From contig PEYN01000018.1 of NCBI GenBank assembly GCA_002774355.1, positions 91 through 64,090 on the forward strand: a stretch of DNA of 64,000 nucleotides, read 5' to 3'. The DNA comes from Fidelibacterota bacterium CG08_land_8_20_14_0_20_45_22. GTDB taxonomy: Bacteria > Fidelibacterota > UBA2242. The notes beneath the pieces are model-generated. The model saw nothing but the letters and a program-made list of their open reading frames with translations, searched no databases and was not told the origin of the DNA. Shown piece after piece: positions 39,569-62,649 of this stretch (its first letter is position 1; every line of letters begins with the position of its first letter). The translations under genes were made by a program, and so were the position numbers.

Positions 39569-40990
39569 TTAAAGTTTTCCGAGATTTTTCATCACGCCTT
39601 CTGCGGCGAACATACCGGTCACGGCGGAATAGACGATTCCTCGACTGTGTCCGCTTGCGTCGCCTGCAACGAAAAAGTTTCTGATGGAGGTTTCCATAAA
39701 TGGCGTAACATTGTATTTCGTGTCGTAAAATTTGATTTCCGGCGCATAAAGCAACGTGTTGTTCGAGACTAATCCAGAAATAATGGCATTTAGAACATTC
39801 AAACCTTCCATCAGATTTGTGGCGATTCGCTGAGGGAATGCCATGGCGATGTCTCCGGGCGTCGCATCCTTTAACGTTGGAACAATTGACGAACGTGAGA
39901 TTCGATCCCATGTCGAACGTCTTCCCGATAGAAAGTCGGTTAGCCGCTGAATAATCGGCTTGCCACCGCCGATTGTAGTCGCTAAGCGGGCAATATCGCG
40001 TCCGTATTTGGTGGTGTCTTCGACGGGATCAGTTAAAACAACGCGCGACAATAAGGCAAAGTTAGTATTGTCGGTTTTAGAATCCCGCCGCGCGTGACCG
40101 TTTACCAGAACGAAGTCGTCAAAATGTTCGCTGACAATATAGCCGTTGGGATTCGTGCAAAATGTTCGGACGAGATCGTCGTATGATTTGCTATAAAGCC
40201 TGAACTTGGCGTCGTACATGATTTGCCCGATTTCGTGATAGATCACGGCGGGAAATTCGACGCGAATGCCGACGTCGATCGGCCCGTAGATGGTTTGAAT
40301 ATTCAGATGCTTAGCCTGTTCTCTCAACCAGTAAGCGCCGGCGCGCCCGGGAGCGGCGATGACCGCGTCGGCGTTCAGTTTTTCATTCCCGCAGACAAGT
40401 TCAAAATGGTCATCTTTAAGTCGGATTTCATCGACTTTTAAATTTTTCCTGAACTGAATTCCACGTTCGACGAGTCGTCTGTAAAAACGTTCGATGACGA
40501 TGTGAAGTCTGTCCGTCCCGATGTGGCGTTGCCGGGCAAAGATGAATTCCACTCCGACGGCGCTTGCCTGACGAAGCAGTTTATGATATTCGCCTCCGTC
40601 TTCGCCGGAATAACCGTCTTCGACGCCGCTTTCTGTAAAAATATTATCAATCTGAAGGATCAATTTTTCAACTTCAGCGGGTGTTCGTCCGAAGCTGCCC
40701 GGCTCGCCGCCAATGCGATGCGTCAGGTTTAATTTCCCATCGGAAAATGTTCCGGCACCGCCGATTCCATAGTTCATATCGGTGCGTAGAGACGGCTCTT
40801 CGCCGCGATCGATTACCAAAACGGACAATCCGCTTCCAATCAGACGCTCCGCCGCGAATAACCCGGCAGATCCCGCTCCGATCAGAATTACATCGAAATA
40901 GTTTTGACTTTTATTCAAAGCAATCTTCCTTTTAAAAACGCGCTTCAATTTTAATGGTTTTCCGTTAAAAACCATAGGAAGAATTTTCAA
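39569..40990 (-). CDS. FAD-dependent oxidoreductase (COG2509-like)
   Basis: N-terminal Rossmann dinucleotide motif DVILIGAGSAGLFAA; 473 aa. Confidence 0.65.
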   Translation of the reverse strand: MKILPMVFNGKPLKLKRVFKRKIALNKSQNYFDVILIGAGSAGLFAAERLIGSGLSVLVIDRGEEPSLRTDMNYGIGGAGTFSDGKLNLTHRIGGEPGSFGRTPAEVEKLILQIDNIFTESGVEDGYSGEDGGEYHKLLRQASAVGVEFIFARQRHIGTDRLHIVIERFYRRLVERGIQFRKNLKVDEIRLKDDHFELVCGNEKLNADAVIAAPGRAGAYWLREQAKHLNIQTIYGPIDVGIRVEFPAVIYHEIGQIMYDAKFRLYSKSYDDLVRTFCTNPNGYIVSEHFDDFVLVNGHARRDSKTDNTNFALLSRVVLTDPVEDTTKYGRDIARLATTIGGGKPIIQRLTDFLSGRRSTWDRISRSSIVPTLKDATPGDIAMAFPQRIATNLMEGLNVLNAIISGLVSNNTLLYAPEIKFYDTKYNVTPFMETSIRNFFVAGDASGHSRGIVYSAVTGMFAAEGVMKNLGKL

Positions 40991-41112
40991 TGTGATGGTA
41001 ATCTCATACTCTTCTTGAAAAATGGTTTGTGATAATACACACAGATTCCGATTTTGGAAGATGGTAATATTACGGTAGGGATTTTGCTAATTGAAAACAA
41101 AAGGAGTAAAAA

Positions 41113-41907
41113 GTGAAAACAAAACTTATTTTTCTTATTGGCATCATATTGTTGATTTTAATGAAATGCGATAGTACTTTTGACGAAACGAAGACAGGCT
41201 CACTGATCATTCAGGCTTTCGACGCTCCATTCAAAGGAAACGTCGAGCATATTTACCTCAATATCAATTCAGTCAGTATTCACGAGGCAGAAGCCGACGA
41301 TTCGACTTCAGGCTGGACGATGGTTAGCGATAAAGACACTGTCATCGATTTTCTGACTCTGGTAAACGGTGAAATGTCAAATCTGGTGGAATCAGAACTT
41401 GAAGAAGGACACTATTCCCAAATCCGGCTAATGCTGGGCGATAGTTCGTTGATTGTGGTGGACGGCATTTCTTATGAACTTAGAGTTCCGAGTGGTTCCC
41501 AATCCGGAGTAAAACTGAATATAAATTTTGACATAGATGCGGATGAAATCACGGAACTTTATCTGGATTTCGATGCGGAAAGATCCATTAATAAACATCC
41601 CACACAGGATCGGTACTCTCTTCAGCCAACTTTTCGGGTAATCAAGAAAGTCCTTTCGGGTACGATTTCCGGAAAAGTGGCGAAGTCTGATCAAACAGCT
41701 CTTGCCAGTGCTTCGGTTTATGCCGTTTCTGGTTCCGACTCAATCACAACATTGACAAATTCTGATGGTTATTATCAGTTAGTTGTTCTTGCGGGAACTT
41801 ATGATATTTCCGCCGCGGCTGACGGATTTACGGCTGACACTTTGTATCAGTCTGTAGTCATAGAAGCCGAAGAGAATCTCACCCATCAAAATTTCATCAT
41901 GAATTAA
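41113..41907 (+). CDS. DUF4382-domain lipoprotein with C-terminal carboxypeptidase-regulatory-like (Ig-like) domain
   Basis: Signal/lipobox-like N-terminus (LLILMKCDS), DUF4382-like middle, C-terminal GTISGKV...TNSDGYYQL... Ig-like domain. Confidence 0.5.
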   Translation: MKTKLIFLIGIILLILMKCDSTFDETKTGSLIIQAFDAPFKGNVEHIYLNINSVSIHEAEADDSTSGWTMVSDKDTVIDFLTLVNGEMSNLVESELEEGHYSQIRLMLGDSSLIVVDGISYELRVPSGSQSGVKLNINFDIDADEITELYLDFDAERSINKHPTQDRYSLQPTFRVIKKVLSGTISGKVAKSDQTALASASVYAVSGSDSITTLTNSDGYYQLVVLAGTYDISAAADGFTADTLYQSVVIEAEENLTHQNFIMN

Positions 41908-41914
41908 TAATTTC

Positions 41915-41960
41915 GATACGGCGGACGGTTTCCTCCAAAAACTGTCCGCCGTATATACTA
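41915..41960 (+). terminator. Possible terminator hairpin after the DUF4382 gene (weak T tract)
   Basis: GATACGGCGGAC...GTCCGCCGTAT 11-bp stem with a 17-nt loop, followed by ATACTACTTTG. Confidence 0.3.
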
Positions 41961-42120
41961 CTTTGTGACACTCAGTTTTCGATTCAAATTAATCCGGTTT
42001 AATTTTACAGGCTTTTATATGAAAATCTAATGTAAGAATTAATGAATTGGATACGTGAGAATATATAGAAAAACTGGAAGAGTTTTTCGTTAGGGGACGA
42101 TTGTAGAGATATGGGAATTT

Positions 42121-42861
42121 TTACAATTTTGCCTGAAAGACGATAAAATACCCGTTTAATGGATGTTTCAAAGAAAAGACATTTAGCTGGTTATAGTCAT
42201 CTCCGAATACGCATTTCATCCGGTTTACTTCCATTTCACGTGAATTATCATCAAAGAAAGGAGTTATCAGATTCAGGGAATTATCAGCGATTTGTGGATA
42301 GCGTCGAGAATTGAGAATATTGCCTTCATTTTTAACTTCTGTCATGATTCTGAAACGTAATTTTACTGAAGATTTATCGACAGACCGTACTTTGCTGAAA
42401 TTATCCTGTTCAGAAAAAATACTGATTAATTGCTTGATCGCGAAAGACGATAGTTTAACCTCCTTTTCTTTCAAGCGTTCTTCTAATACCTGAAGAAATG
42501 ATTTTTGGATGAGCTCTTCTGGCGGTATAGTTTCAAAAAAGTGGCCATGTACCAAAACGACCTTTAGATAAGGAACAGCGCTTCTTTTTATTCCGCGAAT
42601 CAAGTAAAATACATCTCGTATCGGTAAGGAATCTATATCATCGCCAGCGTTTTCCATCTGAATTTTGATAGTACTGTTTTGATGTCGTATTAGTGAAGAA
42701 ATTGGTTTTTGCCCTGTTGGAATCGTTGAATTGAAAGAAGAAACGCTAAATGATTTACCGTCTTTTAGTTCAATTAATTCGCCGCCGGTGTATAAATCGT
42801 TTTGTGGAGAGATTTTAAGAGCAAAATCAGGGAAAATACCATCATTGGCGCAAGAGAACAT
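42121..42861 (-). CDS. Putative type II restriction endonuclease (PD-(D/E)xK-like), partner of the adjacent methyltransferase
   Basis: FPDFALK...ELIELKDGK resembles a PD...ExK core; lies immediately downstream of a DNA methyltransferase on the same strand; no other similarity recognised. Confidence 0.35.
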   Translation of the reverse strand: MFSCANDGIFPDFALKISPQNDLYTGGELIELKDGKSFSVSSFNSTIPTGQKPISSLIRHQNSTIKIQMENAGDDIDSLPIRDVFYLIRGIKRSAVPYLKVVLVHGHFFETIPPEELIQKSFLQVLEERLKEKEVKLSSFAIKQLISIFSEQDNFSKVRSVDKSSVKLRFRIMTEVKNEGNILNSRRYPQIADNSLNLITPFFDDNSREMEVNRMKCVFGDDYNQLNVFSLKHPLNGYFIVFQAKL

Positions 42862-42955
42862 ATCTCGTTCGTAAGGAAAATCCTGTAACTTTTGTGCGTC
42901 TAAAAATGTGACCTGTTTTGATGAATTGATTTGAAGAAATGGTAGATCGAATACA

Positions 42956-43834
42956 TTAGTTTTCGAAGAGTCCTAATACCTTTTGGGCTTTAGGCACTAA
43001 ATTACCGGAATCGTTTGCCCAGATACTACTGATGTTTTCGGAATATTTATAATCACTATAGTACTTCTGGATCGAATCGGATTCATGAATGACGGCAAGT
43101 CGATCCCGGATACAAGCGACATTTTGGGGATCTATTTCAATGCCTAAAGAATCCCGTTGGAGCTGATGTGCCACTATCAAAGATGTGCCCGTGCCAGCGA
43201 ATGGATCAAAAATGAAGTCGCCTACATTTGTTGAAGAGAGTATAATTCTTAAGAGCAATGCGATTGGCGTTTGTTGTTTATGAAATCTCTCTCCAGTCGA
43301 TAGTCGGATTGCTTCATTTCCAGCGAAATAACCGGATGTCAATTCCCGAATGTCATCCCACACGTCGGTAATAAATACTCCGTTTTCTCTAGGTAGTTTA
43401 TACTCTAATGGAAGTTCGGGATCGATTCTCAAGCGGTGGAAAGTCTTTGCGCGCTCGCCTTTTGTGGCATAAGCAATAATTTGGTAGTGCTTCCCGAATT
43501 TCGTCGTGACAGGAACCGCAGAAGTTTTTTTCTTCCAAATTATCACATTCTGCAATGTCCACCCAGTTTTCCGAAGGGATTGTAGTACAAACTCAATGTT
43601 TTTCTCTCTCTGCATAAAATAGATTGTGCCGCCCGTAGCGGTAATCTCGAAAACTGATCGACATACGGTTTGCATCATTTCCCAATAGGATTCATCAATC
43701 ATATTGTCCTGGTGAAACGCGTATTCCTTGTTTTGATTAAATGGCGGGTCCAAAAAAGTCAGATCGACATGGCGTCTTATTTCACCTGCTGAAAAAACAT
43801 CCAAACAATTTTTATTGATAATATCGTAAGACAT
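42956..43834 (-). CDS. DNA methyltransferase, beta-class (N4-cytosine or N6-adenine)
   Basis: Motif IV DPPF near the N-terminus (LTFLDPPFNQ) and motif I FDPFAGTGTS near the C-terminus: the circularly permuted beta-class order. Confidence 0.85.
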   Translation of the reverse strand: MSYDIINKNCLDVFSAGEIRRHVDLTFLDPPFNQNKEYAFHQDNMIDESYWEMMQTVCRSVFEITATGGTIYFMQREKNIEFVLQSLRKTGWTLQNVIIWKKKTSAVPVTTKFGKHYQIIAYATKGERAKTFHRLRIDPELPLEYKLPRENGVFITDVWDDIRELTSGYFAGNEAIRLSTGERFHKQQTPIALLLRIILSSTNVGDFIFDPFAGTGTSLIVAHQLQRDSLGIEIDPQNVACIRDRLAVIHESDSIQKYYSDYKYSENISSIWANDSGNLVPKAQKVLGLFEN

Positions 43835-43865
43835 CTTTTTTAATTTAATTGAAAGAACCTGCTTA

Positions 43866-44693
43866 TCAAACCAATATTTTTGCGGTTCTTAACAGAAATT
43901 CTTCCGTCAGAGCCCGGCACAGATAGCGCCGGTATTCCGCGGTCGAGCGTTGATCGGTAATCGGTCTGACCCTGCGCTCGATGCAATCGAGGATTTCAGC
44001 GGATTTTCCTTCACGATATAATTGCTCGGCTTCGTAAGCCCGGATAATCGTCGGTCCGACCGAGGCGTATGTCAGGCGGATTTCGTTGTTATCCGGCAGG
44101 TACAGACCGAGGAAAGCGACCTTCGAGAGTGAGAGCGCCTTGCGCGGCCCGATCTTGCGATATGAATATTTATAGTTCCACGGAATGTTCAGCCGGATTT
44201 CTGTGAGCAGTTCGTCCGAGCGGAGAATTGTCTTCTTCGGCCCGGTGATGAAGTCGCGAACCGGAATCTTCCGGATACCTTGCGCTGATTCGAGCGTGAG
44301 TTCGGCATCCAGCGCGTAAAAGATCGGAAGTGTGTCGCCCGCCGGAGAAGCATTAACGATATTCCCGCCGAAAGTCGCCATGTTGCGGATTGACGGCGAA
44401 GCAATCTGAGTCACTGCATCGGTCAGCGGCGGAAAAATACTTTTCGCCTGCTCGAGATAGGCGGCGTAGGTCAGACCGGCTCCGATTGTCAACTTTCCTT
44501 CGCTGAAATTTATTTGACTAAGTTCCGAAAGATGATTGATCTGAATGAATACCTGCACTCGTTTGACATTTGTGCGGGCTTGCACAAGTAAATCAGTGCC
44601 CCCGGCGATTGGTTGTGCCACGGTTTGGCTCATCAGATCGAGCACTTCCGATTTTTTAGATGGACGGTAATATTTGAGTTTTTCGTACCACAT
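43866..44693 (-). CDS. Xanthine dehydrogenase-family FAD-binding subunit (CoxM/YgfM-like)
   Basis: FAD_binding_5-type N-terminus (YYRPSKKSEVLDLM...PIAGGTDL) plus CO dehydrogenase flavoprotein C-terminal domain; 275 aa. Confidence 0.85.
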   Translation of the reverse strand: MWYEKLKYYRPSKKSEVLDLMSQTVAQPIAGGTDLLVQARTNVKRVQVFIQINHLSELSQINFSEGKLTIGAGLTYAAYLEQAKSIFPPLTDAVTQIASPSIRNMATFGGNIVNASPAGDTLPIFYALDAELTLESAQGIRKIPVRDFITGPKKTILRSDELLTEIRLNIPWNYKYSYRKIGPRKALSLSKVAFLGLYLPDNNEIRLTYASVGPTIIRAYEAEQLYREGKSAEILDCIERRVRPITDQRSTAEYRRYLCRALTEEFLLRTAKILV

Positions 44694-45117
44694 GTTTATT
44701 TAAAAGTGACGGGTGATGAGTGACGGGTAATTTATGCATATCAATTACGTAAAAATATTCTATTTCTTTTTTCAATGAATTTATTAGTCCTATCAGCATC
44801 TGTCGGATTGTGGCTACTTTTTCATCCAAAGCAGATATATTTTTGATTAACTTTAGATTATTTGCAATAATTAATAACGTTTCTAATTCGCCTAACGATC
44901 CTAACGAAATAAATAAAAACTGAATGCATTCTTTTTTAGAACTTCGTCCAGCGCCTTCGGCAATGTTGGCTGGAATGGATATTACGGGTCTGCGGATTTG
45001 TGAAGTAATCCCGCAGGTTTCTTCTTTGGAAAAATCCCGTGTTAAAGAATAAACCTCCGAACCGAGTTCCATACTTTTCTTCCAAACCTTCAGGTCTTTA
45101 TGGGATTTTATTGCCAT
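44656..45117 (-). CDS. Four-helix-bundle protein (23S rRNA intervening-sequence protein family, TIGR02436-like)
   Basis: MAIKSHKDLKVWKKSMELGSEVYSLTRDFSKEE...QIRR...SIPANIAEG is the hallmark of this family; 38-nt overlap with the downstream coxM-like start. Confidence 0.8.
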   Translation of the reverse strand: MAIKSHKDLKVWKKSMELGSEVYSLTRDFSKEETCGITSQIRRPVISIPANIAEGAGRSSKKECIQFLFISLGSLGELETLLIIANNLKLIKNISALDEKVATIRQMLIGLINSLKKEIEYFYVIDMHKLPVTHHPSLLNKHVVRKTQILPSI

Positions 45118-45143
45118 GTACTCACCCTGTCACTTGTCACTTT
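44703..45143 (-). mobile_element. Inverted-repeat-bounded small element carrying a four-helix-bundle (23S rRNA IVS-type) protein gene, inserted between the FAD and 2Fe-2S subunit genes
   Basis: AAAGTGACGGGTGATGAGTGACGGGTAA at 44703-44730 pairs with the reverse complement of 45121-45143 (AAAGTGACAAGTGACAGGGTGAG). IR-R supplies the last 9 codons of the 2Fe-2S gene. IR-L plus the coxM start supply a 29-aa tail on the 4HB ORF. Confidence 0.5.
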
Positions 45144-45563
45144 CTCCACCGCTTCAACGATCTTCTTATATCCGGTACACCGGCAGAGATTTCCCGAGAG
45201 TGCTTCTTTAATTTCAGCGACAGTCGGATGCGGATTGTGTTTCAGCAGGGCGTAAGCCGATACGACGAATCCCGGTGTGCAGAACCCGCATTGCACCGCG
45301 CCGGTTTCTTCGAAGGATTTGAAAAGTTCATTAGCATTGATGCCTTCGATTGTGGTCACTTCCCGACCGTCACATTGGCCGAGCAGAACCAGACAGGAAT
45401 TCACCGGTTTGCCATCGAGCAGAACCATACACGCGCCGCATTCGCCTTCTCCGCAACCTTCCTTCGTGCCGGTCAGCTTTAATTCACTGCGCAAATAATC
45501 GAGCAGACGCGTTGAGGGAGAGGCTTTTGAGACCCGAGCTATACCATTTACAATAATATTCAC
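45108..45563 (-). CDS. (2Fe-2S)-binding subunit of a xanthine dehydrogenase-family molybdenum hydroxylase (CoxS-like)
   Basis: Plant-type ferredoxin motif GCGEGECGACMV and second cluster motif CGFCTPGFV...CRCTGY. Start uncertain (GTG at 45563/45566 lies inside the element repeat; the ORF call to 45641 would overlap the GxxExxY gene). Confidence 0.85.
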   Translation of the reverse strand: MNIIVNGIARVSKASPSTRLLDYLRSELKLTGTKEGCGEGECGACMVLLDGKPVNSCLVLLGQCDGREVTTIEGINANELFKSFEETGAVQCGFCTPGFVVSAYALLKHNPHPTVAEIKEALSGNLCRCTGYKKIVEAVEKVTSDRVSTWQ

Positions 45564-46047
45564 CACAGAGGACACGGAGGGCACAGAGGTATTTTTATTT
45601 ATTTTCTTTACTTTAGTCATTAATAATTCGGTGAACCCCATCGATTAATTTTACTACGTTGAAATTTATCAATAATCCTAAGATTCGATTAGAAAGTTTA
45701 AGATAAGACAATAATTGGGCTGTATGAATTGGGAGAAGATTTTCGATGGCTTTTAATTCAACCGCAATTTCACCCTCAACTAATAAATCTATCCGATAAC
45801 CACAGTCTAATTTTACATCTTTATAGACCACCGGCAGATCTTTCTGAGATTCCACTTTCAAACCTAATTGCTTTAATTCATACACAAGACATGCTTCATC
45901 GGTGGATTCCAGCAAACCCGGACCCAGTGCACGATAAACATCAGTAGCCTTACCTATTATTTTCTCCGTAATCTTATTTAATTCCTCTCGTGATTTCATC
46001 TATCTATCTAATATTTTCTCTGTGCTCTCTGTGTACTCTATGGTAAA
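45561..46047 (-). mobile_element. Inverted-repeat-bounded small element carrying a GxxExxY-family gene, inserted between the Mo-binding and 2Fe-2S subunit genes
   Basis: CACCACAGAGGACACGGAGGGCACAGAGGTA at 45561-45591 pairs with the reverse complement of 46016-46047 (TTTACCATAGAGTACACAGAGAGCACAGAGAA), about 24/30 matches. IR-R encodes the last 10 aa (VHREHRENIR) of the Mo subunit gene. Confidence 0.5.
45613..45999 (-). CDS. GxxExxY-family protein (PD-(D/E)xK nuclease-like, TIGR04256/PDDEXK_3-like)
   Basis: GKATDVYRALGPGLLESTDEACLVYEL...RIDLLVEGEIAVELKA contains the GxxExxY signature and a D...E.K core; 128 aa. Confidence 0.85.
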   Translation of the reverse strand: MKSREELNKITEKIIGKATDVYRALGPGLLESTDEACLVYELKQLGLKVESQKDLPVVYKDVKLDCGYRIDLLVEGEIAVELKAIENLLPIHTAQLLSYLKLSNRILGLLINFNVVKLIDGVHRIIND

Positions 46048-48232
46048 TCATTTCCGGGGTCAAGGGAATCTCATGGAATTCGACGCCCAGCGCATTCTCG
46101 ACCGCGCCGAGATATGCCGCCGGAATGCCGACTAACGGTTGTTCGCCGACGCCCTTCGCGCCGTACGGCCCGCGCGAGTAATTTTCTTCCAGAATAATGG
46201 ATTCGATTTCCGGCGCATCTAATGTTGTCGGAATGATGTAATCCGTCAGGCTTGCTTGATTCAATCTGCCGTTTGTTGCCGTCATAACTTCCAGCGAGGC
46301 GTAACCGAGTCCCTGCAAAGAGCCGCCTTCGATCTGGCCTTCAACCAGAACCGGATTGATTGCCTTGCCGATGTCGTGCGCCGCCGTGATTTTTCCAACC
46401 GTCACTTCAAAAGTCAGCGGGTCAACAGTAACTTCCACTACTGACGCCGCCCAGGAGTAAATTGGGTAAGCGTCGCCGACAAATTTATCATCATCCCAGA
46501 CGACGTCGTCCGGCACGCGATAAACACGCGTCGCGGTGAAAATACCATTCGTTGCCAGTTTCGCTTTTTCGGCAAAATCCTTTTTGGCGGGCGTCGCTCC
46601 GACCTGCTCCATCAGATCGGTACAACATTGAAAAACCAATCCGCCGACGATCATGGTCGTGCGCGAAGCGACCGTCGGCCCGGAATTTGGCACAATGGCT
46701 GTATTCGGAATTGCCACCGTGATTCTTTCGATGGGAAGAGCCAGCGCGTCGGCGGTAATCTGACGCATGACGGTATTCATGCCTTGTCCCATTTCAACAG
46801 TGGCGATACGGATCAATAATCCGGTTTCATTTGAATAATCGACAGAGGCGGTTGCCTTGATAATTTCTTCGCCTTTGCCCGTAAAACCGCATCCGTGGAA
46901 AAACGCAGAGATACCGATGCCTTTTAAAAGTTGACCATTTCGCGGCTGATTGCGGTATTGATTATATTTTTCAACGAAATTCGTACGCTCGGCGACAACA
47001 TTCAATGCTTTTTCCAAGCCAATGGATTCTGCTAATAATTGGCCGGTCGCCGTACGGTCACCGAGGCGCAAAATATTAATTTTCCGCAGAGAATAAGGGT
47101 CGAGATCCAGGCGATAAGCGGCGTGATTCATCTGAGCTTCGATGGCGAAGAACGCCTGCGGAGCGCCGAATCCGCGAAACGCGCCCGACGGCAACAGATT
47201 TGTCGCTACGGCTTTCGACGCTAAACGGATATGATCGCATTTGTAAACTCCCGGCGAGCCCAGCGCGCCGCGCGCCAAAACTACCTGTGAGAGCGTACTG
47301 TGCGCCCCGCCATTCAATATGAAATCGATGTCCATGGCGATAATGCGACTGTTCTTATCGAAAGCGATCCGGCGAATACTTTGCGACGGATGGCGTTTGG
47401 TTGTCACGGAAATGTCCTCGCTTCGATCATAGACGATTTTGACCGGTTTGCCAGATTTCAGCGCCAGAAGCGCCGCGTGACCGGAAATCAGCGATGGATA
47501 TTCCTCCTTGCCGCCGAATGCTCCACCGGTGGTCGCCTGTTCAACGACTATATCTTCCGGGTCGAGATTTAGCACTGGTGCCAGACCTTTTTGCACGTAA
47601 AACGGGCATTGCATTGAACCGACGATCCTGATGCCATTCTTGAAAGGATAAGCAATCACGCCCTGCGTTTCTAAATAGATATGCTCCTGATAGCCGGTGC
47701 GGAAGGTTTCCTCCAGCACGAATTTGCTTTTTGCGAAAGCTTTATCCGGGTCGCCCTTGACGTAGCCGTAACTCTTGAAAATGTTGTCACTGCCGTAAAT
47801 CGGCGGAAAATTCCCGGACAGCGCGTTTTCCATCGTTGAAATCGCCGGCAAATCTTCGTATTCAATTTGAAATTGTGAAGCGATCGCGCGCAGTTCATCC
47901 TCATTTTTTCCGGCTAACAGCGCAATCGGTTCGCCGATGTAATTGACGACATCTTTCGCCAAAAAGGGTTGATCTTCGTTGAACAGGGCGACGTAATTTT
48001 CACCGGGAATGTCTTCAGCCTTGATATAAATGACGTCGGGCGGCAATTCCGGAGCGACAATCCGCAGAATCTTCGCCCGCTGACGGTTCGAGCGGATCGT
48101 TACACCAAAGAGCATATCCGGAAAATCCAGATCATTGGTATATTTTGCTGCGCCACGCATTTTATCGGCGGCATCAAACCGCACAATCGGCTGGCCGACA
48201 TATTTTAGATCCATTTTCTGTTGATCGGACAT
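46004..48232 (-). CDS. Molybdopterin-binding large subunit of a xanthine dehydrogenase / aldehyde oxidase-family hydroxylase (CoxL/XdhD-like)
   Basis: 742 aa with Ald_Xan_dh_C hammerhead and the two Mo-cofactor binding domains; follows XdhC and precedes the 2Fe-2S and FAD subunit genes. Confidence 0.9.
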   Translation of the reverse strand: MSDQQKMDLKYVGQPIVRFDAADKMRGAAKYTNDLDFPDMLFGVTIRSNRQRAKILRIVAPELPPDVIYIKAEDIPGENYVALFNEDQPFLAKDVVNYIGEPIALLAGKNEDELRAIASQFQIEYEDLPAISTMENALSGNFPPIYGSDNIFKSYGYVKGDPDKAFAKSKFVLEETFRTGYQEHIYLETQGVIAYPFKNGIRIVGSMQCPFYVQKGLAPVLNLDPEDIVVEQATTGGAFGGKEEYPSLISGHAALLALKSGKPVKIVYDRSEDISVTTKRHPSQSIRRIAFDKNSRIIAMDIDFILNGGAHSTLSQVVLARGALGSPGVYKCDHIRLASKAVATNLLPSGAFRGFGAPQAFFAIEAQMNHAAYRLDLDPYSLRKINILRLGDRTATGQLLAESIGLEKALNVVAERTNFVEKYNQYRNQPRNGQLLKGIGISAFFHGCGFTGKGEEIIKATASVDYSNETGLLIRIATVEMGQGMNTVMRQITADALALPIERITVAIPNTAIVPNSGPTVASRTTMIVGGLVFQCCTDLMEQVGATPAKKDFAEKAKLATNGIFTATRVYRVPDDVVWDDDKFVGDAYPIYSWAASVVEVTVDPLTFEVTVGKITAAHDIGKAINPVLVEGQIEGGSLQGLGYASLEVMTATNGRLNQASLTDYIIPTTLDAPEIESIILEENYSRGPYGAKGVGEQPLVGIPAAYLGAVENALGVEFHEIPLTPEMIYHRVHREHRENIR

Positions 48233-48402
48233 CGGTTACAAAGATAATCGTTTCTGGTGAATAATGGTAGAGAGAATTTTTAATTGAAAATTGGTGGCTG
48301 GAGATTGCTAATTTCAAAATTCAAATTGCAAATATTTCATTTCAAATTGGAAGAAAATACAAGTTTAGTTTTCTCCGCGACCGCTGCAGTCTCCGCGGTT
48401 AT

Positions 48403-49179
48403 CTAGGATTTCTTCCTCAATGAATCGGTTTCGGTTTTATTGATTACGCCTATCATTTCGCCCAGGATGGCTACCGCGATTTCAGCCGGTGTCTGCGCTC
48501 CGATATTCAGGCCAATCGGCGAGTAAAATTGCTCCGGAATGGCAATCTTTTCCTCAGTCAATCGCGCGCGGGTTTCTTTAACTTTATGCAGTGAACCGAT
48601 CAGGCCGATATATTCGAATGACTTTCCGCAAGTCAGCAATTGGCGCAGAACAGTGTAATCGAACTGATGATTGTAGGTCATAATCGCCGCAAAGAGATTC
48701 GACCCGGGAAAAGTTACCATCGGCAATTTTTCCAAATCGCACTGAATGAAGTCGATGGGCGCGAATTGCGGTTTGAGTTCCGATCGATTATCGTAAACCG
48801 TCACCCGAAAACCAATCTGCGGCGCCATTTTATAAAGCGCCTGCCCGCAATGGCCGCCGCCAAAAATTAACAGCGTGCGCACCGCCGGAAAATAGTCGTA
48901 AAAGAGCGTTGAACTGCCGCCGCAGGGCATACCAAGAGAATCGAGATCGTATCGTTTCAATTCCGACTTATGCGATTGGAAAATCAAGCCGGCATGGCGG
49001 ATCGCCTCTGCCTCCAGACTACCGCCGCCGACCGTGCCGAATGTTTTACCGTTTGGTAGAACCAGCATCTTGAAAGAAACCTTGCCCGGCGCCGCGCCGG
49101 AATTTTCGATGACGGTAATCAAAACGCAAGCCTGTCCAGAAGCAGTTATTTCCGTGATTTTATTAAACAGGGTGTTCAC
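48403..49179 (-). CDS. XdhC/CoxI-family molybdenum hydroxylase maturation factor
   Basis: XdhC_CoxI N-domain (ACVLITVIENSGAAPGKVSFKMLV...GTVGGGSLE) followed by the Rossmann-like XdhC_C domain (LLIFGGGHCGQAL). Confidence 0.85.
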   Translation of the reverse strand: MNTLFNKITEITASGQACVLITVIENSGAAPGKVSFKMLVLPNGKTFGTVGGGSLEAEAIRHAGLIFQSHKSELKRYDLDSLGMPCGGSSTLFYDYFPAVRTLLIFGGGHCGQALYKMAPQIGFRVTVYDNRSELKPQFAPIDFIQCDLEKLPMVTFPGSNLFAAIMTYNHQFDYTVLRQLLTCGKSFEYIGLIGSLHKVKETRARLTEEKIAIPEQFYSPIGLNIGAQTPAEIAVAILGEMIGVINKTETDSLRKKS

Positions 49180-49790
49180 TTTGTTCTCGCTTTCATTTTG
49201 GCAATTCGTTCTGCGGTGGATTGAAGTATTCCATAATCATTGGGCGTGTCCAGATCCAGCAGAATTTCTTCGTCATAAACCGTTACAAACCGCCTTTTGA
49301 ATTGATTAATGATCGTTTTAGGAGTTATGGAAGAATCGTTTTCGTCTGCCGCCAGAATTGCCGTCCGGACTTTTTCGCTGGCGAGGATCGGATGTCCGGC
49401 ACTACGATGGAACGATGGCTGGACAATGTCGGCTTTTTCTGCGGCGATTAATTTTTGGTAAACTTTAGCCGGAATCTGTGGCTGGTCGCCGAGTGCAATG
49501 AAAAAACGTAGCGTTTGAATCTGCGCGGCGCCGACTTTCACCGAAGAAAACATGCCTTTGGCGTACTGTTTATTTTCGACGAAAACCACGCGTTCGTCCC
49601 AGCGTTTCAGATTGACAATATCCTGCGCCCGAAAGCCCACCACGACGATAACCCGCTCCGACACTTCCAGCGCGGTGTCAATGACTGTTTCGACTATCGT
49701 GGATTGCCCGAAAGGCAACAACGGTTTGAAGGCGCCCATGCGGGTGGAAAGCCCGGCGGCGAGGACGACTGTATCAAACTTATTAACCAC
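49176..49790 (-). CDS. MobA/MocA-like nucleotidyltransferase (molybdenum cofactor cytidylyl/guanylyltransferase; YgfJ-like)
   Basis: VVLAAGLSTRMGAFKPLLPF N-terminal NTP-transferase motif; 204 aa; 4-bp overlap with the xdhC-like gene. Confidence 0.8.
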   Translation of the reverse strand: MVNKFDTVVLAAGLSTRMGAFKPLLPFGQSTIVETVIDTALEVSERVIVVVGFRAQDIVNLKRWDERVVFVENKQYAKGMFSSVKVGAAQIQTLRFFIALGDQPQIPAKVYQKLIAAEKADIVQPSFHRSAGHPILASEKVRTAILAADENDSSITPKTIINQFKRRFVTVYDEEILLDLDTPNDYGILQSTAERIAKMKARTK

Positions 49791-49809
49791 GAATGGACAC
49801 GAATTTACA

Positions 49810-51033
49810 CTAATACTTTTTCATACTATTGATTATTGCTTCAAGATTTGGCTCAATTGTCGGTGGAATAGCGATCTTATTTTCTATTGCATTCATATCT
49901 TTAAAACCAACGCCGGTTAAAAGGATAACGATTTTCTGCAAGGGATCGAGGTTACTTTTATCTTTCAGAAATCCCGCCCAGGCCGCGGCGGCGGCCGGTT
50001 CGACGAAAACGCCCGCATCCTGGCAGAGTTGCAACTGAGCGGCGGTAATTTCGGCATCGCTGACTTCCGTAGCCCAGCCGCTACAGGCTTGCATGAATTT
50101 GATGGCCATCCGACCATTAGCCGGCGAAGCGACTGAAATGGAATCAGCCGCGGTTGTCGCCTTGTCAATGGTCAGCATCCTTCCGGATTGATAAGCTTTC
50201 GCGATGGCATTTGAGCCGCTAGCCTGTACGCTAACGATTTGCGGGATTTTCGCAATCAGTCCGGCGACTTTCAGATCGGCAAAACCCTTATAAACTCCGG
50301 CATAAATCACGCCGTCGCCAACCGGCACGAAGACGATGTCCGGCGCGCTCCGGCCAAGTTGATTGAACATTTCGATCGAAACGGTTTTTTTACCCTCGAT
50401 GGTCAGCGGATTGAAAGCCGTGTTGCGGTTGATACCGCCGAATTGCTTTGTGTACTCGATAGACAGTCTGAAGGCGTCGTCGTAAGTGCCGCGAATCGGA
50501 ATGACTGTTGCTCCGTAAAGCACCGACTGCAGAAGTTTGGCCTTCGGCGCAGTCGCCGGAACGAAAAGGATGACATTCAGGCCGAGCGCCGCACCTGCAC
50601 AGGCCATCGCCGAACCGGCATTGCCAGTCGAGGCCAGGACAACGGTTTTCTCGTTATGGTATAAAGCCTGTGCGGCAACCAATTGCGAAGCGCGGTCTTT
50701 CAGCGAGCCGGACGGATTGGCGCCGTCATTTTTCAGGAAAAGATTCGGTAAGCCATATTGCTGGCGCAATTTTTCCGGCGCAACGAGCGGCGTATTGCCC
50801 ACCGGATAGGCGGCGGCCTCCGGCAATTGATAAACGAGAAAATCGGCCGGAGTAACCGCCGGTTTATTTTTCAGCGACGCCAAATATTCCGGATCGAGAA
50901 GGGTTTCCAGCACACCTTTTTGAAATTCGCCGGGAATCTGTTCGCATCGTGGACAAAGATAACGGATTTGGTCGGCCGGATATTCAGCCCCGCAATCGCT
51001 ACAGCGATATTTAAAATTCACAACGCACCTCAA
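49810..51033 (-). CDS. PLP-dependent fold-type II enzyme of the threonine synthase family with N-terminal zinc-ribbon
   Basis: YRCSDCG...CPRC zinc ribbon; PLP-lysine motif NPSGSLKDRAS; Gly-rich loop GVGDGV; 407 aa. Start is TTG (51033) or GTG (51021). Confidence 0.7.
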   Translation of the reverse strand: MRCVVNFKYRCSDCGAEYPADQIRYLCPRCEQIPGEFQKGVLETLLDPEYLASLKNKPAVTPADFLVYQLPEAAAYPVGNTPLVAPEKLRQQYGLPNLFLKNDGANPSGSLKDRASQLVAAQALYHNEKTVVLASTGNAGSAMACAGAALGLNVILFVPATAPKAKLLQSVLYGATVIPIRGTYDDAFRLSIEYTKQFGGINRNTAFNPLTIEGKKTVSIEMFNQLGRSAPDIVFVPVGDGVIYAGVYKGFADLKVAGLIAKIPQIVSVQASGSNAIAKAYQSGRMLTIDKATTAADSISVASPANGRMAIKFMQACSGWATEVSDAEITAAQLQLCQDAGVFVEPAAAAAWAGFLKDKSNLDPLQKIVILLTGVGFKDMNAIENKIAIPPTIEPNLEAIINSMKKY

Positions 51034-59736: not shown

Positions 59737-59760
59737 TTCATTCCAAAGTTAACTAATTTT

Positions 59761-59903
59761 CACCACAGAGAGTATTTTGCCGCGGATTAGCGCGGATAAA
59801 TCAATAATATTTATAGACTCTTTGCTAATATATGGTGTAGAGTTTTTCGTTTTTTTTGTGTTATTGATATAAAGAGATTTTTCTCTGTGTACTCTGTGGT
59901 GAG
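59761..59903. repeat. ORF-less 143-bp MITE-like derivative of the GxxExxY-carrying element, between the sigma-54 activator and ygeW-like genes
   Basis: Termini CACCACAGAGAGTA (59761-59774) and CTCTGTGTACTCTGTGGTGAG (59884-59903) are inverted repeats. They match the termini of the 45561..46047 element (CACCACAGAG..., ...CTCTGTGTACTCTATGG). Internal palindrome CCGCGGATTAGCGCGG. Confidence 0.55.
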
Positions 59904-59913
59904 TTTAAAAACA

Positions 59914-60936
59914 TTACGGTCTTCCGCCCATCGTCAGCGCCATGACGGCTTTCGCGGTATGCAGACGGTTTTCGGCTTCGTCGTAAATGATCGCCGCTGG
60001 TCCGTCAATGACTTCATCGGCGACTTCTTTGCCGCGATCGGCGGGCAGGGCGTGCATGTATTTGACTTCTGGTGCGGCGAGTTTCATCCGGCGGGCGTCG
60101 CAAATCCAATCGGTATGTTTTTCGAGATTGGTCTTCATCTCTTTGCGACACTCTTCTTCATTTTGGTTGTACTCGTCGAATTCATAGTTGCCGAATCCGC
60201 CCCAGTTTTTCGGGATGACAATCTGAGCGCTACGGAATCCCTCATCCATGTTGTCGGTGAATGACAGTTTGCCGCCATTCAGCCGGGTGTTTTCCTGCGC
60301 CTGGGCGACATATTCCTTTTTTAATGGAAATTCTTTCGGCGCGGCGACCGTCACGTCCATACCGAAACGCGGAAAGAGCAGAATTTGCGAAAGCGGTACG
60401 GAGAGCGGTTTAGCGTGACTGGTGGCGTACGCCCAGGAAATCGTGACTTTCAAGCCATGCAAATTTTGCCCGAAATATTCCTGCATCGTCATCAAATCGG
60501 CGATTACCTGCATGGGGTGAAAAATATCATCCTGCAACGAGAGAATCGGCACGGACGAGAATTGCGCCAATTCACGTAGATATTTGTTGCCGATGCCGTA
60601 GAAGCAATTGCGGCAGGCGATGCCGTGTCCCATGCGCGAAAGCACCATGGCAGTATCCTTAGCCGATTCGCCGTGTGAAAGTTGCATTTTGTCGGGTGTC
60701 AAGTCATGGGCATGGCCGCCGAGTTGAGTCATGCCGGCTTCCATCGAATTGCGCGTGCGCGTGGATTGCTCAAAAAACATCATGAAAAGCGTCTTGTCCT
60801 GCAATAGCCGATGCGGCTCACCGAGCGCGAATTTGCGCTTGAGGTCAGCGGCAACCCCGAGCACCATATTGATTTCGTTTTTTGTCCATTCATTAAAAGT
60901 GATGAGGTGTTTCCCTCGTAAAAGAGTCTCGTTCAT
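59914..60936 (-). CDS. YgeW-family carbamoyltransferase (ATCase/OTCase superfamily; oxamate carbamoyltransferase-like)
   Basis: STRTR carbamoyl-phosphate motif; WAYATSHAKPLSVP and MHALPADRG segments closely resemble E. coli YgeW (WAYSPSYGKPLSVP, MHCLPAD). Confidence 0.85.
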   Translation of the reverse strand: MNETLLRGKHLITFNEWTKNEINMVLGVAADLKRKFALGEPHRLLQDKTLFMMFFEQSTRTRNSMEAGMTQLGGHAHDLTPDKMQLSHGESAKDTAMVLSRMGHGIACRNCFYGIGNKYLRELAQFSSVPILSLQDDIFHPMQVIADLMTMQEYFGQNLHGLKVTISWAYATSHAKPLSVPLSQILLFPRFGMDVTVAAPKEFPLKKEYVAQAQENTRLNGGKLSFTDNMDEGFRSAQIVIPKNWGGFGNYEFDEYNQNEEECRKEMKTNLEKHTDWICDARRMKLAAPEVKYMHALPADRGKEVADEVIDGPAAIIYDEAENRLHTAKAVMALTMGGRP

Positions 60937-60946
60937 ATCAAACCTT

Positions 60947-61372
60947 TCATGTTAACCGCGGAGGACGCTGAGAACGCAGAGTTTCTCCTTGATAATTGTT
61001 GACAATTCTTTTTATTCCATTTTTAAGTATGCTTGAATTGAAGTTAATCAACAACCCTACTTGTAGTTTTGAGATTTTTAAGTAATTCAGTAGTTGCGCC
61101 TGATCGATATTGGTCAGTTCGTTGACGGCTTTACACTCAACCACCAATTGGTCGTCGATAAAAAAGTCGCAACGAAAACCTTTTTCTATCACTATGTCAG
61201 CATATTTAACGGACAGATATTTTTCCTTTTCAAATTTCATTCCGGCTTCCTGCATTTCACAAGCCAGGGCGGCCTGATAAACCGATTCCAAAAACCCGGG
61301 GCCAAGATTGCGGTGAACCTTAATCGCTAAACCGATTACTGTTTCCGTCAGTTGGTTTATATCTTCAAACAT
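60947..61372 (-). CDS. GxxExxY-family protein (second copy)
   Basis: GLAIKVHRNLGPGFLESVYQAALACEM...RCDFFIDDQLVVECKA contains the GxxExxY signature; paralog of 45613..45999. Confidence 0.85.
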   Translation of the reverse strand: MFEDINQLTETVIGLAIKVHRNLGPGFLESVYQAALACEMQEAGMKFEKEKYLSVKYADIVIEKGFRCDFFIDDQLVVECKAVNELTNIDQAQLLNYLKISKLQVGLLINFNSSILKNGIKRIVNNYQGETLRSQRPPRLT

Positions 61373-61405
61373 AAAATTGCTCCGTGCCCTCTGCGTCCTC
61401 GGCGG
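60958..61405 (-). mobile_element. Second GxxExxY-carrying inverted-repeat element, inserted between the M20 peptidase and carbamoyltransferase genes
   Basis: GCGGAGGACGCTGAGAACGCAGAG (60958-60981) pairs with the reverse complement of CTCCGTGCCCTCTGCGTCCTCGGCGG (61380-61405). IR-L encodes the C-terminal tail QGETLRSQRPPRLT of the GxxExxY ORF. Confidence 0.45.
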
Positions 61406-61406
61406 T

Positions 61407-62603
61407 TTATTTCCCGCGGCTCAGATTTGCGACCAGTCCGGCGTAGAAAGCCGCGGCTTGCCAGAGGTGCTCGACCGGCGTCCATTCGTTCGGGGCGTGG
61501 GCTTGCTCCTCGAATCCCGGCCCGAAGCCGATGCACGGTATACCATGCACGCCGCGAATCGTCACACCATTGGTCGAGAAAGTCCACTTGTCGACAACCG
61601 GCTCCTTTGCGAACAGGTTGCGGTAGTTTTCAATTCCAGCCTGAACGAGAGGGTGGTCGGTTTCCAGTTTCCAGGTTGGGAAATATTTTTCCATTGGATA
61701 GACTTTTCCGGTGAATGCCTTTTCCCGGTAAACCGGCAATTCGACTTTGGCGTCAATTTTCAGTTTTTCAATGATAGCACGAATTTCCGCTAACGCTGAT
61801 TCCTTCGTCTCGCCCCAGGTCAGGCGGCGGTCGAGATAGATCGAACAATAATCTGGCACGGCACATAATGACGGACTGATAGATTTTATCTGGCTTAGCA
61901 CGACGGTGCCTTTGCCGAGAAATTCATCGAATGCCAGACGTTCGTTGAGCAGTTCAATTTCTTTTATCAGCGGTGCGATTTTGTAAACGGCGTTGTCGCC
62001 GCGTTCCGGCGCGGAGCCGTGCGCGGAAAGTCCGACGACGGAGATTTCGATTTCCATGCGTCCGCGCTGACCGCGATAAATCCGACAGCCGGTTGGTTCG
62101 GTGCTGACGGCGAAGTCGGGGCGGAGGTGGTCTTCATTGACAATATAATTCCAGCACAAGCCGTCGCAATCTTCTTCCATGACCGAACCGACGAAATAGA
62201 CAGTGCAATCTCTGGCGAGGTCGAATTCCATAATAATGCGTGCCGCCGCCAGCATAGACGCCATGCCGCCTTTCTGGTCAGCTACGCCGCGCCCCCAGAC
62301 CTTGCCGTCTTTCACATGACCATCGAACGGATCGAACTGCCACAGACTACGGTTGCCGACATCCACGGTGTCTATGTGAGCGTCGAAAGCGATTTTGACT
62401 GGACCATTGCCGAGGCGCCCGATGATGTTGCCGATGCCGTCGATGATTATTTCATCGAAGCCGATGTCTTCCATTTCCTTTTTTATTCGGCTAATTACAT
62501 TTCCCTCTTGGCCACTCAGTGAGGGAATCGAGGCAAGTTCAGCCAGGAAATTGGCTGTAGAATGATCTAAGCCTTTAGCAAGCCTTATGATTTTTGTTTT
62601 CAT
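61407..62603 (-). CDS. M20-family peptidase, YgeY-like
   Basis: Long collinear similarity to E. coli YgeY (e.g. MEEDCDGLCWNYIV, YRGQRGRMEIEI, HGSAPERGDNA, VVDKWTFSTNGV, HAPNEW). Start placed at the internal Met MKTKIIRL (62603). Confidence 0.85.
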   Translation of the reverse strand: MKTKIIRLAKGLDHSTANFLAELASIPSLSGQEGNVISRIKKEMEDIGFDEIIIDGIGNIIGRLGNGPVKIAFDAHIDTVDVGNRSLWQFDPFDGHVKDGKVWGRGVADQKGGMASMLAAARIIMEFDLARDCTVYFVGSVMEEDCDGLCWNYIVNEDHLRPDFAVSTEPTGCRIYRGQRGRMEIEISVVGLSAHGSAPERGDNAVYKIAPLIKEIELLNERLAFDEFLGKGTVVLSQIKSISPSLCAVPDYCSIYLDRRLTWGETKESALAEIRAIIEKLKIDAKVELPVYREKAFTGKVYPMEKYFPTWKLETDHPLVQAGIENYRNLFAKEPVVDKWTFSTNGVTIRGVHGIPCIGFGPGFEEQAHAPNEWTPVEHLWQAAAFYAGLVANLSRGK

Positions 62604-62649
62604 TTTGCCAGATTCCTTATTTAATCCTTTCTGCAAGGCGCAATGCTCC

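Follow-up and report, generated by a model that had tools for sequence, protein, structure and literature searches.

Two families of hairpin-bounded ORF cassettes at the gene junctions of a molybdenum hydroxylase operon, probable relatives of the 23S rRNA intervening sequences

The molybdenum hydroxylase operon on contig PEYN01000018.1 of Fidelibacterota bacterium CG08_land_8_20_14_0_20_45_22, contained in a stretch of 64,000 nucleotides that we call the window, raises the question of how two small open reading frames (ORFs) bounded by inverted repeats came to lie at the junctions between the genes of its Mo-binding, 2Fe-2S and FAD-binding subunits, and how these repeats came to encode the ends of host proteins. 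A preliminary description of the sequence had proposed two independent foreign cassettes built like the intervening sequences (IVSs) of 23S rRNA, with termini translated as host ends; the stems, the low GC content, the turnover among orthologous operons and the presence of the same arms in other phyla all agree with this. We consider it probable that the two cassettes, E1 and E2, belong to two widespread families of hairpin-bounded ORF cassettes, akin to the ORF-bearing 23S rRNA IVSs but inserted at the DNA level into operons, at gene 3' ends. A cassette consists of a 20-35 bp stem, with arms made of short tandem repeats specific to the ORF family, and a loop that holds the ORF, which encodes either a GxxExxY protein of the PD-(D/E)xK fold or an Avd-like four-helix-bundle (4HB) protein. 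The cassettes are co-oriented with the host operon and chained to its cistrons by start and stop codons, and their arms have been absorbed into host reading frames. We read them as operon-riding hairpin cassettes, relatives of the rRNA IVSs, with ORF-less derivatives resembling MITEs (miniature inverted-repeat transposable elements). Six operons were compared in this analysis, that of the window (W) and its orthologues L003, L004, L005, L197 and L199.

E1, estimated at about 487 bp in the preliminary description, measures 493 bp, and its ORF exceeds the curated cut-offs of both TIGR04256 (138 bits, cut-off 35) and PF13366 (133 bits, cut-off 22); it encodes no PF05635 protein, the cargo being the PD-(D/E)xK-like GxxExxY protein. 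The repeat search found in its arms an inverted repeat of 40 nt with 78% complementarity, corresponding to a stem of about 32 bp with a duplex energy of -44.3 kcal/mol (z = -10.8 against shuffles). In these arms a terminal TTTACC precedes tandem units of 9 nt (CACAGAGAG CACAGAGAA), in agreement with the family consensus TTCACC(CRCRGAG NN)n. E2 (443 bp, estimated at about 440 bp) carries the 4HB gene, whose product belongs to PF05635 and TIGR02436; it matches the PDB entry 2GSC (XCC0516 of Xanthomonas campestris, E=5.8e-19), and 4HB proteins give weak matches to PF22296 bAvd. The left arm of E2 consists of the heptamers GTGACAA GTGACAG GGTGAGT, and the stem, from which one heptamer unit bulges out, comprises about 21 bp and has a duplex energy of -26.9 kcal/mol (z = -4.0 against shuffles). 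Simple local alignment of these arms gives a score of 20 vs 20 for the best shuffle, while the orthologous E2 arms of L004 score 55 vs a shuffle maximum of 21.

Repeat search, folds and duplex z-scores agree that imperfect inverted repeats, given earlier as 20-30 bp long, bound each element, and folding across the repeat pairs, which had been proposed as a check, shows that the arms of E1 and E2 form long stems in both the minimum-free-energy and the centroid structures. The arms are short tandem units, not arbitrary inverted repeats: CRCRGAG-type units of 8-10 nt in the GxxExxY cassettes and 7-nt GTGACNN units in the 4HB cassette.

The five ORFs of the operon (Table 1) are chained by a gap of 4 nt followed by overlaps of 29, 10 and 38 nt. 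Their GC content is 30-39% in the cassette ORFs and 51-56% in the host genes. Both cassettes sit between protein-coding genes, not in rRNA: no Rfam family, rRNA included, was found in the 64-kb window at the gathering thresholds, and none in the cassette region at E<=1. The nearest genome relatives are metagenome-assembled genomes of Neomarinimicrobiota. In a promoter and terminator scan, which is uninformative for this phylum, 12 promoter-like sites stood against an expectation of 7.5±2.9, and the cistrons were not separated by any minus-strand terminator. The GTGACA of the E2 left arm, together with a TAAAAT 17 nt later (45133-45105, minus strand), fits 10 of 12 sigma-70-type promoter positions just upstream of the 4HB ATG; this is a consensus match only, and heptamer arms of the GTGA type generally look like -35 boxes.

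Table 1. Genes of the operon, cassettes and further hairpin elements in the window
Feature	Coordinates	Strand	Description
Cassette E1, 493 bp	45557..46049	minus	At the Mo / 2Fe-2S junction; left arm 46049..46017, ORF 45999..45613, right arm 45589..45557
Cassette E2, 443 bp	44702..45144	minus	At the 2Fe-2S / FAD junction; left arm 45144..45122, 4HB ORF, right arm 44729..44702
Mo-binding subunit, xanthine-dehydrogenase-family hydroxylase	46004..48232	minus	Pfam and NCBIfam matches
GxxExxY / PDDEXK_3 protein, 128 aa	45613..45999	minus	TIGR04256, E=1.7e-40; PF13366
2Fe-2S subunit	45108..45641	minus	Pfam and NCBIfam matches; family profile begins at residue 27
4HB protein, 153 aa	44656..45117	minus	TIGR02436, E=1.3e-33; PF05635, E=6.5e-33
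FAD-binding subunit	43866..44693	minus	Pfam and NCBIfam matches
Cassette E3, 456 bp	60953..61408	minus	Second GxxExxY ORF (61372..60947); between YgeY-like M20 peptidase and YgeW-like carbamoyltransferase
E4, ORF-less hairpin of the E1 arm family	59760..59902	minus	CACCACAGAGTACACAGAG ... CTCTGTGGTG, ~120-nt loop
Solitary arm-like sequence	48370..48398	minus	CCGCGGAGACTGCAGCGGTCGCGGAGAAAAC; between XdhC-like gene and Mo subunit

The host genes read through the arms at several of their ends. The Mo gene traverses the whole left arm of E1, its stop codon lying in the E1 loop just past the arm and its end 4 nt ahead of the GxxExxY ATG, and its last ~13 codons (46043..46004) come from the cassette. 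Since codon 729/730 is where the conserved terminus TT(C/T)ACC begins, the element-encoded tail comprises about 12-13 residues (YHRVHREHRENIR); its origin from the E1 arm had been recognized correctly, the length of 10 residues (VHREHRENIR) being too short. Distant Mo orthologues mostly align only up to residue ~729. The last ~9 codons of the 2Fe-2S gene (VTSDRVSTWQ) lie in the left arm of E2, which bears out the earlier assignment of the last nine residues (VTSDRVSTW) to an element terminus; in L003, where this junction is free of a cassette, the 2Fe-2S gene ends with ...EAVQKAAKHNIQRDK and the FAD start follows 2 nt on. The 4HB ORF lacks its normal stop and continues through the right arm and 38 nt of the FAD gene, so that the protein has 153 aa in the window vs 119-127 aa in the orthologues. 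The preliminary description had derived this tail from the repeat and the start of the FAD gene, which holds, and had given it 29 aa, which has to be corrected to ~34 aa beyond the family profile.

The start of the 2Fe-2S gene had been placed at a GTG inside the repeat, and here we arrive at a different conclusion. ATG 45620 overlaps the stop codon of the GxxExxY gene (AATGACTAA), and because this overlap is conserved in all four ORF-bearing operons (the window, L004, L197 and L199), ATG 45620 is more likely the start than the GTG in the arm (45566/45563). With this start, the E1 right arm would therefore encode an N-terminal extension of the 2Fe-2S subunit (…NTSVPSVSSVV…). These cases show how termini of mobile elements turn into the C- and N-termini of essential enzymes, and annotators should be warned that a peptide such as HREHRE, SVSSV or FPDSLRSPRALR at the end of a protein is a repeat arm that has been translated.

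Upstream of the E1 left arm, L197 (~3930-3990) and, at the equivalent positions, L199 and L003 have the terminus a second time as a partial copy (TTCACCGCAAGATTAA TTCACCACAG...), which gives longer Mo tails (…IIHRKINSPQNARRTRR). This copy may be a scar left when one site was hit by a repeated or nested insertion.

A metagenome scan with the GxxExxY alignment yielded 80 loci, 78 of them with enough flanking sequence. The best inverted repeat across the ORF beats all 30 shuffles in 68 of these 78 loci. The arm is a TTCACC followed by two to four tandem CRCRGAG units (variants CACGAAG, CACAAAG and CACAGAT), each with 2-3 further nt, and is mirrored as ...CTCTGYGGTGAA; the TTCACC...GGTGAA termini are common to most of the 68 positive loci and to examples from cultured genomes. 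Among bacteria in culture, arms of this type were found in Bacteroides finegoldii (radA|X|FAD-dependent protein), Sphingomonas parapaucimobilis (fabD|X|fabG-acpP-fabF) and Bernardetia (ade|X|manC); they also occur in a molybdenum hydroxylase operon of Gemmatimonadota, in which the stop codon of the upstream gene lies within the arm. The ORF is AT-richer than its flanks in 58 of 61 other loci, with a mean difference of 8.7 points. Where both neighbours are co-stranded, the GxxExxY ORF is on their strand in 26 of 27 loci; together with the chained ORFs of the window, this supports the earlier view of selfish elements that tolerate or exploit co-transcription. The stop codon of the upstream gene (38 cases) precedes the left arm by a median of 12.5 nt in 26 loci, lies inside the arm in eight and beyond it in four. 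Arm absorption into the host gene is thus recurrent, occurring in 12 of 38 cases, or about one third, and gene callers often translate the arms into the cassette protein as well (VFTAENAESAEM…, …FPDSLRSPRALR). In 1.15 Mb of retrieved DNA, the loops of CRCRGAG hairpins are bimodal in length, with 25 below 150 nt and 27 at 350-600 nt.

Two unusual arrangements were observed among these loci. In one of them (L090, 2583-3560), a GxxExxY ORF stands between five near-identical tandem ORF-less hairpins (77-nt period, 11-13-nt loops) ahead of it and two further hairpins behind it, with no single clean arm pair around the ORF. The polarity of the arms is reversed in eight of 61 GxxExxY loci (including L133, L161, L147, L152 and L130), with CTCTGYG…GGTGA before the ORF and TCACC…CRCAGAG after it; the ORF there appears to lie between two neighbouring hairpins, not inside one.

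Sixteen of 19 4HB loci outside the lineage of the window have arms with a 7-nt period that beat every shuffle. Their units are diverse (GTGATCA, GTGAGAG, GTGAATG, GTAACGG, CGTAATT, CGTTACA, TAGTCTG, TCGGCNN and GGGTGTG), and the arms reach 79 nt. The loci come from Deferribacter, Poribacteria, Nitrosophilus, Bacteroidia, phage contigs and plasmids of Nostoc punctiforme and Calothrix; most of them lie co-oriented within biosynthetic operons, including hisG|hisD-type and polysaccharide operons, and scans of viral contigs gave only 3+3 loci, also with heptamer arms. The Nostoc and Calothrix genes are bordered by GGGTGTG / CTACACC arrays, and a close 4HB homologue was found in 16 plasmid records, all of them from cyanobacteria (Nostoc, Calothrix, Anabaena and others). 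Cyanobacteria such as these are the taxa in which the heptamer repeats known as short tandemly repeated repetitive (STRR) sequences were first described.

Side observations concern two further groups of 4HB loci. In L168/L169 (1-2900), three 4HB paralogues (82-89% identical), each with its own heptamer arms (GTGAATA or GTGAGAG), lie among sugar-nucleotide genes near a YafQ-toxin-like fragment. Beside the Deferribacter 4HB cassette (L166, 224-2431), a 735-aa epimerase/dehydratase gene has a faint LAGLIDADG_3 match between its two epimerase halves and may carry an intein.

Comparison of the orthologous operons, another check that had been proposed, revealed the native 2Fe-2S end in L003 and showed presence, absence and replacement of cassettes on the host tree, which according to the Mo-subunit identities is (W,(L003,(L004,(L005,(L197,L199))))). 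At the Mo/2Fe-2S junction, W, L004, L197 and L199 carry the GxxExxY ORF with arms, and L005 and L003 carry arms without the ORF; at the 2Fe-2S/FAD junction, a 4HB cassette of type A is found in W, L004 and L197 and one of type B in L199 and L005, and the junction of L003 is empty. The GxxExxY identities mirror the host tree (L197-L199 91%, L004-L197 83%, 73-79% to W). Between W and L004, the synonymous divergence (dS) and the ratio of non-synonymous to synonymous substitution rates (dN/dS) are 1.55 and 0.12 for GxxExxY, 1.65 and 0.086 for 4HB, and 1.36 and 0.094 for the host Mo gene. Because the identities track the host tree and these values resemble those of the Mo gene, the GxxExxY cassette is old, vertically inherited with the operon and under purifying selection.

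The loops of the ORF-less hairpins in L005 and L003 are about 50 and 110 nt long. Since L005 nests among ORF-bearing lineages and the GxxExxY identities follow the host tree, these hairpins are deletion derivatives: the ORF was lost twice, by independent internal deletions that left the hairpin behind. The opposite scenario, insertion of the ORF into a pre-existing native hairpin at this junction, was rejected owing to the same nesting of L005. The preliminary description had regarded identical C-terminal peptides in operons without an inserted ORF as a sign of native repeats; formally such peptides exist at the Mo/2Fe-2S junction of L003 and L005, but in substance they belong to deletion derivatives. 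The E1 stems of all six operons have folding energies of -37 to -48 kcal/mol. In a hand-registered alignment of these stems 77% of the cells are paired vs 31-55% in slid controls, and four pairs show AU<->GC compensation; the covariation score was reached by only 4 of 500 shuffles. Coming from six related sequences, this compensatory pairing is suggestive, not proof.

The 4HB cassettes tell of replacement. Type A has GTGACNN arms and 76-92% protein identity (W, L004 and L197), and type B has CGTAANN arms, its two proteins (L005 and L199) being 81% identical to each other and 54-61% identical to type A. The sisters L197 and L199 have Mo subunits that are 92% identical, yet their 4HB proteins are only 55% identical and their arm units are GTGACNN vs CGTAANN. 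Because these sisters carry different types, one 4HB cassette has taken the place of another at this junction, through re-insertion or through inter-strain recombination. At the filled 2Fe-2S/FAD junctions the cassette replaces ~30 nt that in L003 are native coding sequence at the 3' end. No direct repeat indicative of a target-site duplication was evident between the empty (L003) and the filled (W, L004 and L005) junctions, the boundaries of which are blurred by the palindromic termini.

The window contains four hairpin elements within 64 kb, two GxxExxY genes among them, and the elements are therefore multi-copy. The arms of E3, CCGCCGAGGACGCAGAGGGCACGGAG and CTCTGCGTTCTCAGCGTCCTCCGCGG, form a duplex of -43.9 kcal/mol (z = -6.8), and its GxxExxY protein retains all near-invariant residues, including the signature Tyr. 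E4 lies directly behind the carbamoyltransferase stop codon and has -33.8 kcal/mol vs a shuffle mean of -15.0 kcal/mol. For the solitary arm-like sequence a partner arm was searched for and none was found. Three of the four elements are hosted by a neighbourhood of the purine / selenium-dependent Mo-hydroxylase type (48403-51033 and 59914-62672), with genes for XdhC-like, MobA-like nucleotidyltransferase, pyridoxal-phosphate-dependent threonine-synthase-like, YgeY-like M20 peptidase and YgeW-like carbamoyltransferase proteins and a sigma54 activator.

Directly downstream of the FAD subunit gene, two genes of low GC content (33-44%) occupy 42121-43834 on the minus strand, a DNA methyltransferase-like ORF (43834..42956) and a 246-aa ORF (42861..42121). 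In L003 this pair is absent, and the FAD gene directly precedes a lipoprotein gene homologous to window 41113-41907; the pair looks like an inserted restriction-modification pair.

We propose the following mechanism for the cassettes. Their ORFs would be promoterless and expressed off the host polycistronic message through translational coupling. The conserved termini and periodic arms would be recognized during mobilization at the DNA level, as a hairpin, a cruciform or terminal inverted repeats; the GxxExxY arms may be recognized by the encoded nuclease itself, and the ORF-less hairpins would be a MITE-like by-product. In RNA, the arms could form a long stem, a potential substrate of RNase III. 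Because the TTCACC terminus is conserved and the stems show no sense-strand G·U bias, recognition by a protein or at the level of DNA fits better than a purely RNA-level stem.

Several observations weigh against reading E1 and E2 as mobile cassettes of this kind. Neither a transposase nor a target-site duplication nor recent identical copies were found, no search having been aimed at a cognate transposase; mobility is for this reason inferred from distribution and turnover. The surveyed loci were picked because their proteins resemble those of the window (about 54-67% identity) and represent sub-families, not all of PF13366 and PF05635. The swap of the 4HB cassettes could be an allelic replacement through homologous recombination between related strains, not transposition. 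A dN/dS near 0.1 over long vertical inheritance is atypical of a purely selfish element and may reflect a host-level function. The two families cannot share a protein-based mobilization chemistry, 4HB having no known catalysis, and the GxxExxY nuclease may be a candidate mobilizer only. Moreover, the GxxExxY copy of this operon may be catalytically altered or inactive. Among 79 family members, E31, D71, Q95, Y99 and N112 are invariant, and H22, Y34, E81 and K83 are 97-99% conserved. The E1 protein has E31, D71, E81 and K83, the catalytic residues of PD-(D/E)xK enzymes, and shows two changes, H22Y at a position of 99% and Y34D at one of 97% conservation in the family, the latter replacing the signature Tyr; its L004 orthologue has E81K, and the copies of E3, L197 and L199 are intact. 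PADLOC defence models matched neither the E1 nor the E2 protein, and a weak Cas4 match was obtained for the E3 copy only.

The possibility raised in the preliminary description, that RNase III cuts the stems in the polycistronic message, releases the cassette in the way in which the IVS is excised from 23S rRNA and so imposes processing on this message, seems to us rather unlikely. The stems of 21-36 bp would be long enough, and there are precedents: the Coxiella IVS of similar make is cut by RNase III in its stem (PMC4990558), and Correia elements co-transcribed with Neisseria genes can bind RNase III, with either cleavage or protection as the outcome (PMC2649163). Translation runs through both arms of E1 and E2, however, and ribosomes would melt the stems. 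Most arms of the family lie just after the upstream stop codon, where processing by RNase III is plausible and cleavage would be harmless, but in E1 the Mo stop codon is in the loop, so that cleavage of the stem would produce a non-stop Mo mRNA. Retention of complementarity over dS > 1, with some compensatory changes, speaks for this possibility, yet G·U pairs are not in excess on the sense strand among the mismatches of 61 stems (45 vs 57, p = 0.28), and the TTCACC terminus and the family-specific units point to recognition by a protein, not to mere pairing. Given the translated arms and the position of the Mo stop, RNase III cleavage would probably not be the main fate of the transcript in this operon.

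A relationship like that between REP doublets forming hairpins (REPINs) and REP-associated tyrosine transposases (RAYTs) would make the GxxExxY nuclease a vertically kept mobilizer of CRCRGAG hairpins, in which ORF-less hairpins replicate and ORF-bearing copies serve as source or guardian. ORF-less hairpins are indeed as common as ORF-bearing ones (25 vs 27) and can form tandem arrays, but those in the six operons are in situ deletion derivatives, not fresh insertions. RAYTs are likewise inherited vertically for long periods under purifying selection (PMC3116915, PMC3337134); they are single-copy, whereas GxxExxY is multi-copy, with two genes in 64 kb. The PD-(D/E)xK fold with its invariant catalytic residues suits a mobilizer, although the nuclease activity is a prediction and the 4HB cassettes of the same architecture are given no role. 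We find this explanation doubtful.

It is improbable that the hairpins are host-selected intercistronic stem-loops that stabilize or decouple the mRNA, with the small ORFs as ordinary accessory genes within them. Retention of the Mo/2Fe-2S stem in all six orthologues, even where the ORF is gone, and purifying selection on the ORFs are compatible with such a role. One and the same arm sequence is nevertheless found across phyla and operons that are not related, the AT content of the ORFs consistently exceeds that of their flanks, the 2Fe-2S/FAD junction of L003 is empty with a different native gene end, and cassette types have been swapped between sister lineages. Finally, a chance or low-complexity origin of the repeats, with the ORFs merely small operon genes, could appeal to the alignment score of the window E2 arms but is refuted by the GxxExxY and 4HB surveys, in which 68 of 78 and 16 of 19 loci beat every shuffle with family-specific arms, and by the z-scores of the three window cassettes, and can be dismissed.

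The reading of E1 and E2 as operon-riding cassettes related to IVSs may be extended further. We tentatively propose, with less than even confidence, that the 4HB and GxxExxY families are the cargo of one unrecognized class of hairpin-borne, operon-riding elements, of which the rRNA IVS is a special case; that the derivatives and arms of these elements explain much of the excess of heptamer and other short repeats behind genes (the GGGAATC pairs of Xanthomonas and the cyanobacterial STRR); and that the proteins bind or cut their own arms. The link to the long-unexplained intergenic heptamer repeats is credible and offers a possible origin for them. PF05635 and PF13366 are very large families, with at least 1,783 close 4HB homologues and at least 8,000 GxxExxY homologues, and their function is still given as unknown: in 2024 the 23S_rRNA_IVP domain was described as "functionally uncharacterized" (PMC11270868), and PDDEXK_3 is listed with unknown function (PMC3424549). 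In the openly searchable literature, a scope that leaves aside subscription journals and database descriptions, we found no published account of hairpin arms or of operon insertion for either family. Both are now tied to a defined structure, a hairpin with periodic family-specific arms, and to a niche, the 3' ends of genes in operons and in operon orientation, which makes their function testable through binding or cutting of their own arms and through stem processing.

The cassettes share features with several known systems. The 4HB protein shares its fold family with Avd, the accessory protein of diversity-generating retroelements, as the weak bAvd matches indicate; no reverse transcriptase was noticed among the ORFs of 40000-50000, where only the operon genes were scanned with Pfam and template and variable repeats were not searched for. 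Like the Rickettsia palindromic elements, as cited in PMC10969869, the arms are mobile palindromes read in frame within host proteins; unlike those elements, which in that account lie inside genes and have no ORF of their own, they replace or extend gene termini at intercistronic junctions.

The 4HB arms resemble the heptameric simple sequence repeats of Xanthomonas and the STRR of Nostocales, which are intergenic tandem heptamers behind the upstream gene, often in convergent pairs. According to the passages of Rehm et al. (2015, PMC4692102) considered here, GGGAATC heptamer arrays are in excess in Xanthomonas and lie a short distance behind the upstream gene, with 70-75 convergent heptamer pairs per genome; these passages treat the repeats as G-quadruplex-forming and make no tie to 4HB genes. 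In the supplementary table of the same paper, one GGGAATC array is listed that follows bccP at a distance of 6 nt and overlaps the start of the 4HB gene of 2GSC, XCC0516.

As in the REPIN-RAYT system, a population of hairpin repeats is tied to a protein gene that they flank and persists vertically under purifying selection. RAYTs are single-copy Y1 transposases of the IS200/IS605 type, whereas the cargo here is a PD-(D/E)xK nuclease or a 4HB protein, is multi-copy and is bordered by tandem-repeat arms. Correia elements (CREE/NEMIS) and other MITEs are, like the cassettes, small and inverted-repeat-bounded, located at gene junctions, co-transcribed and able to form RNA stems (PMC2649163, PMC10969869). 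The ORF-less hairpins resemble MITEs in particular, with terminal inverted repeats that have a conserved terminus, and the multi-copy character of MITEs is found in the four elements within 64 kb and in the empty, filled and swapped states of the six operons. Unlike CREE, which have no ORF and a TA target duplication, the full-length form carries a conserved protein gene and unrelated arm sequences, and no duplication was found.

The closest resemblance is to the ORF-bearing 23S rRNA IVSs of Leptospira and Coxiella burnetii, with which the cassettes share a length of about 430-490 nt, terminal inverted repeats, a stem of >20 bp, a GC content lower than that of the host and a sporadic distribution with both horizontal and vertical inheritance; E2 also shares the PF05635 4HB gene. 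The Coxiella IVS has 428 nt, a 28-bp stem, an S23p 4HB ORF and a GC content below that of the genome, and its origin and function were called unclear (PMC4990558). RNase III excision is a feature of the 23S rRNA IVSs and for the present cassettes would be an analogy only. In contrast to the IVSs, which replace the tip of helix 9, 25 or 45 in a 23S (or 16S) rRNA gene, the cassettes lie in a protein-coding operon, their arms are translated as host protein ends and in the 4HB cassette are tandem heptamers, and a second, unrelated ORF family (GxxExxY) shares the design. The novelty is thus the existence of IVS-type hairpin cassettes outside rRNA, in two protein families and with MITE-like derivatives.

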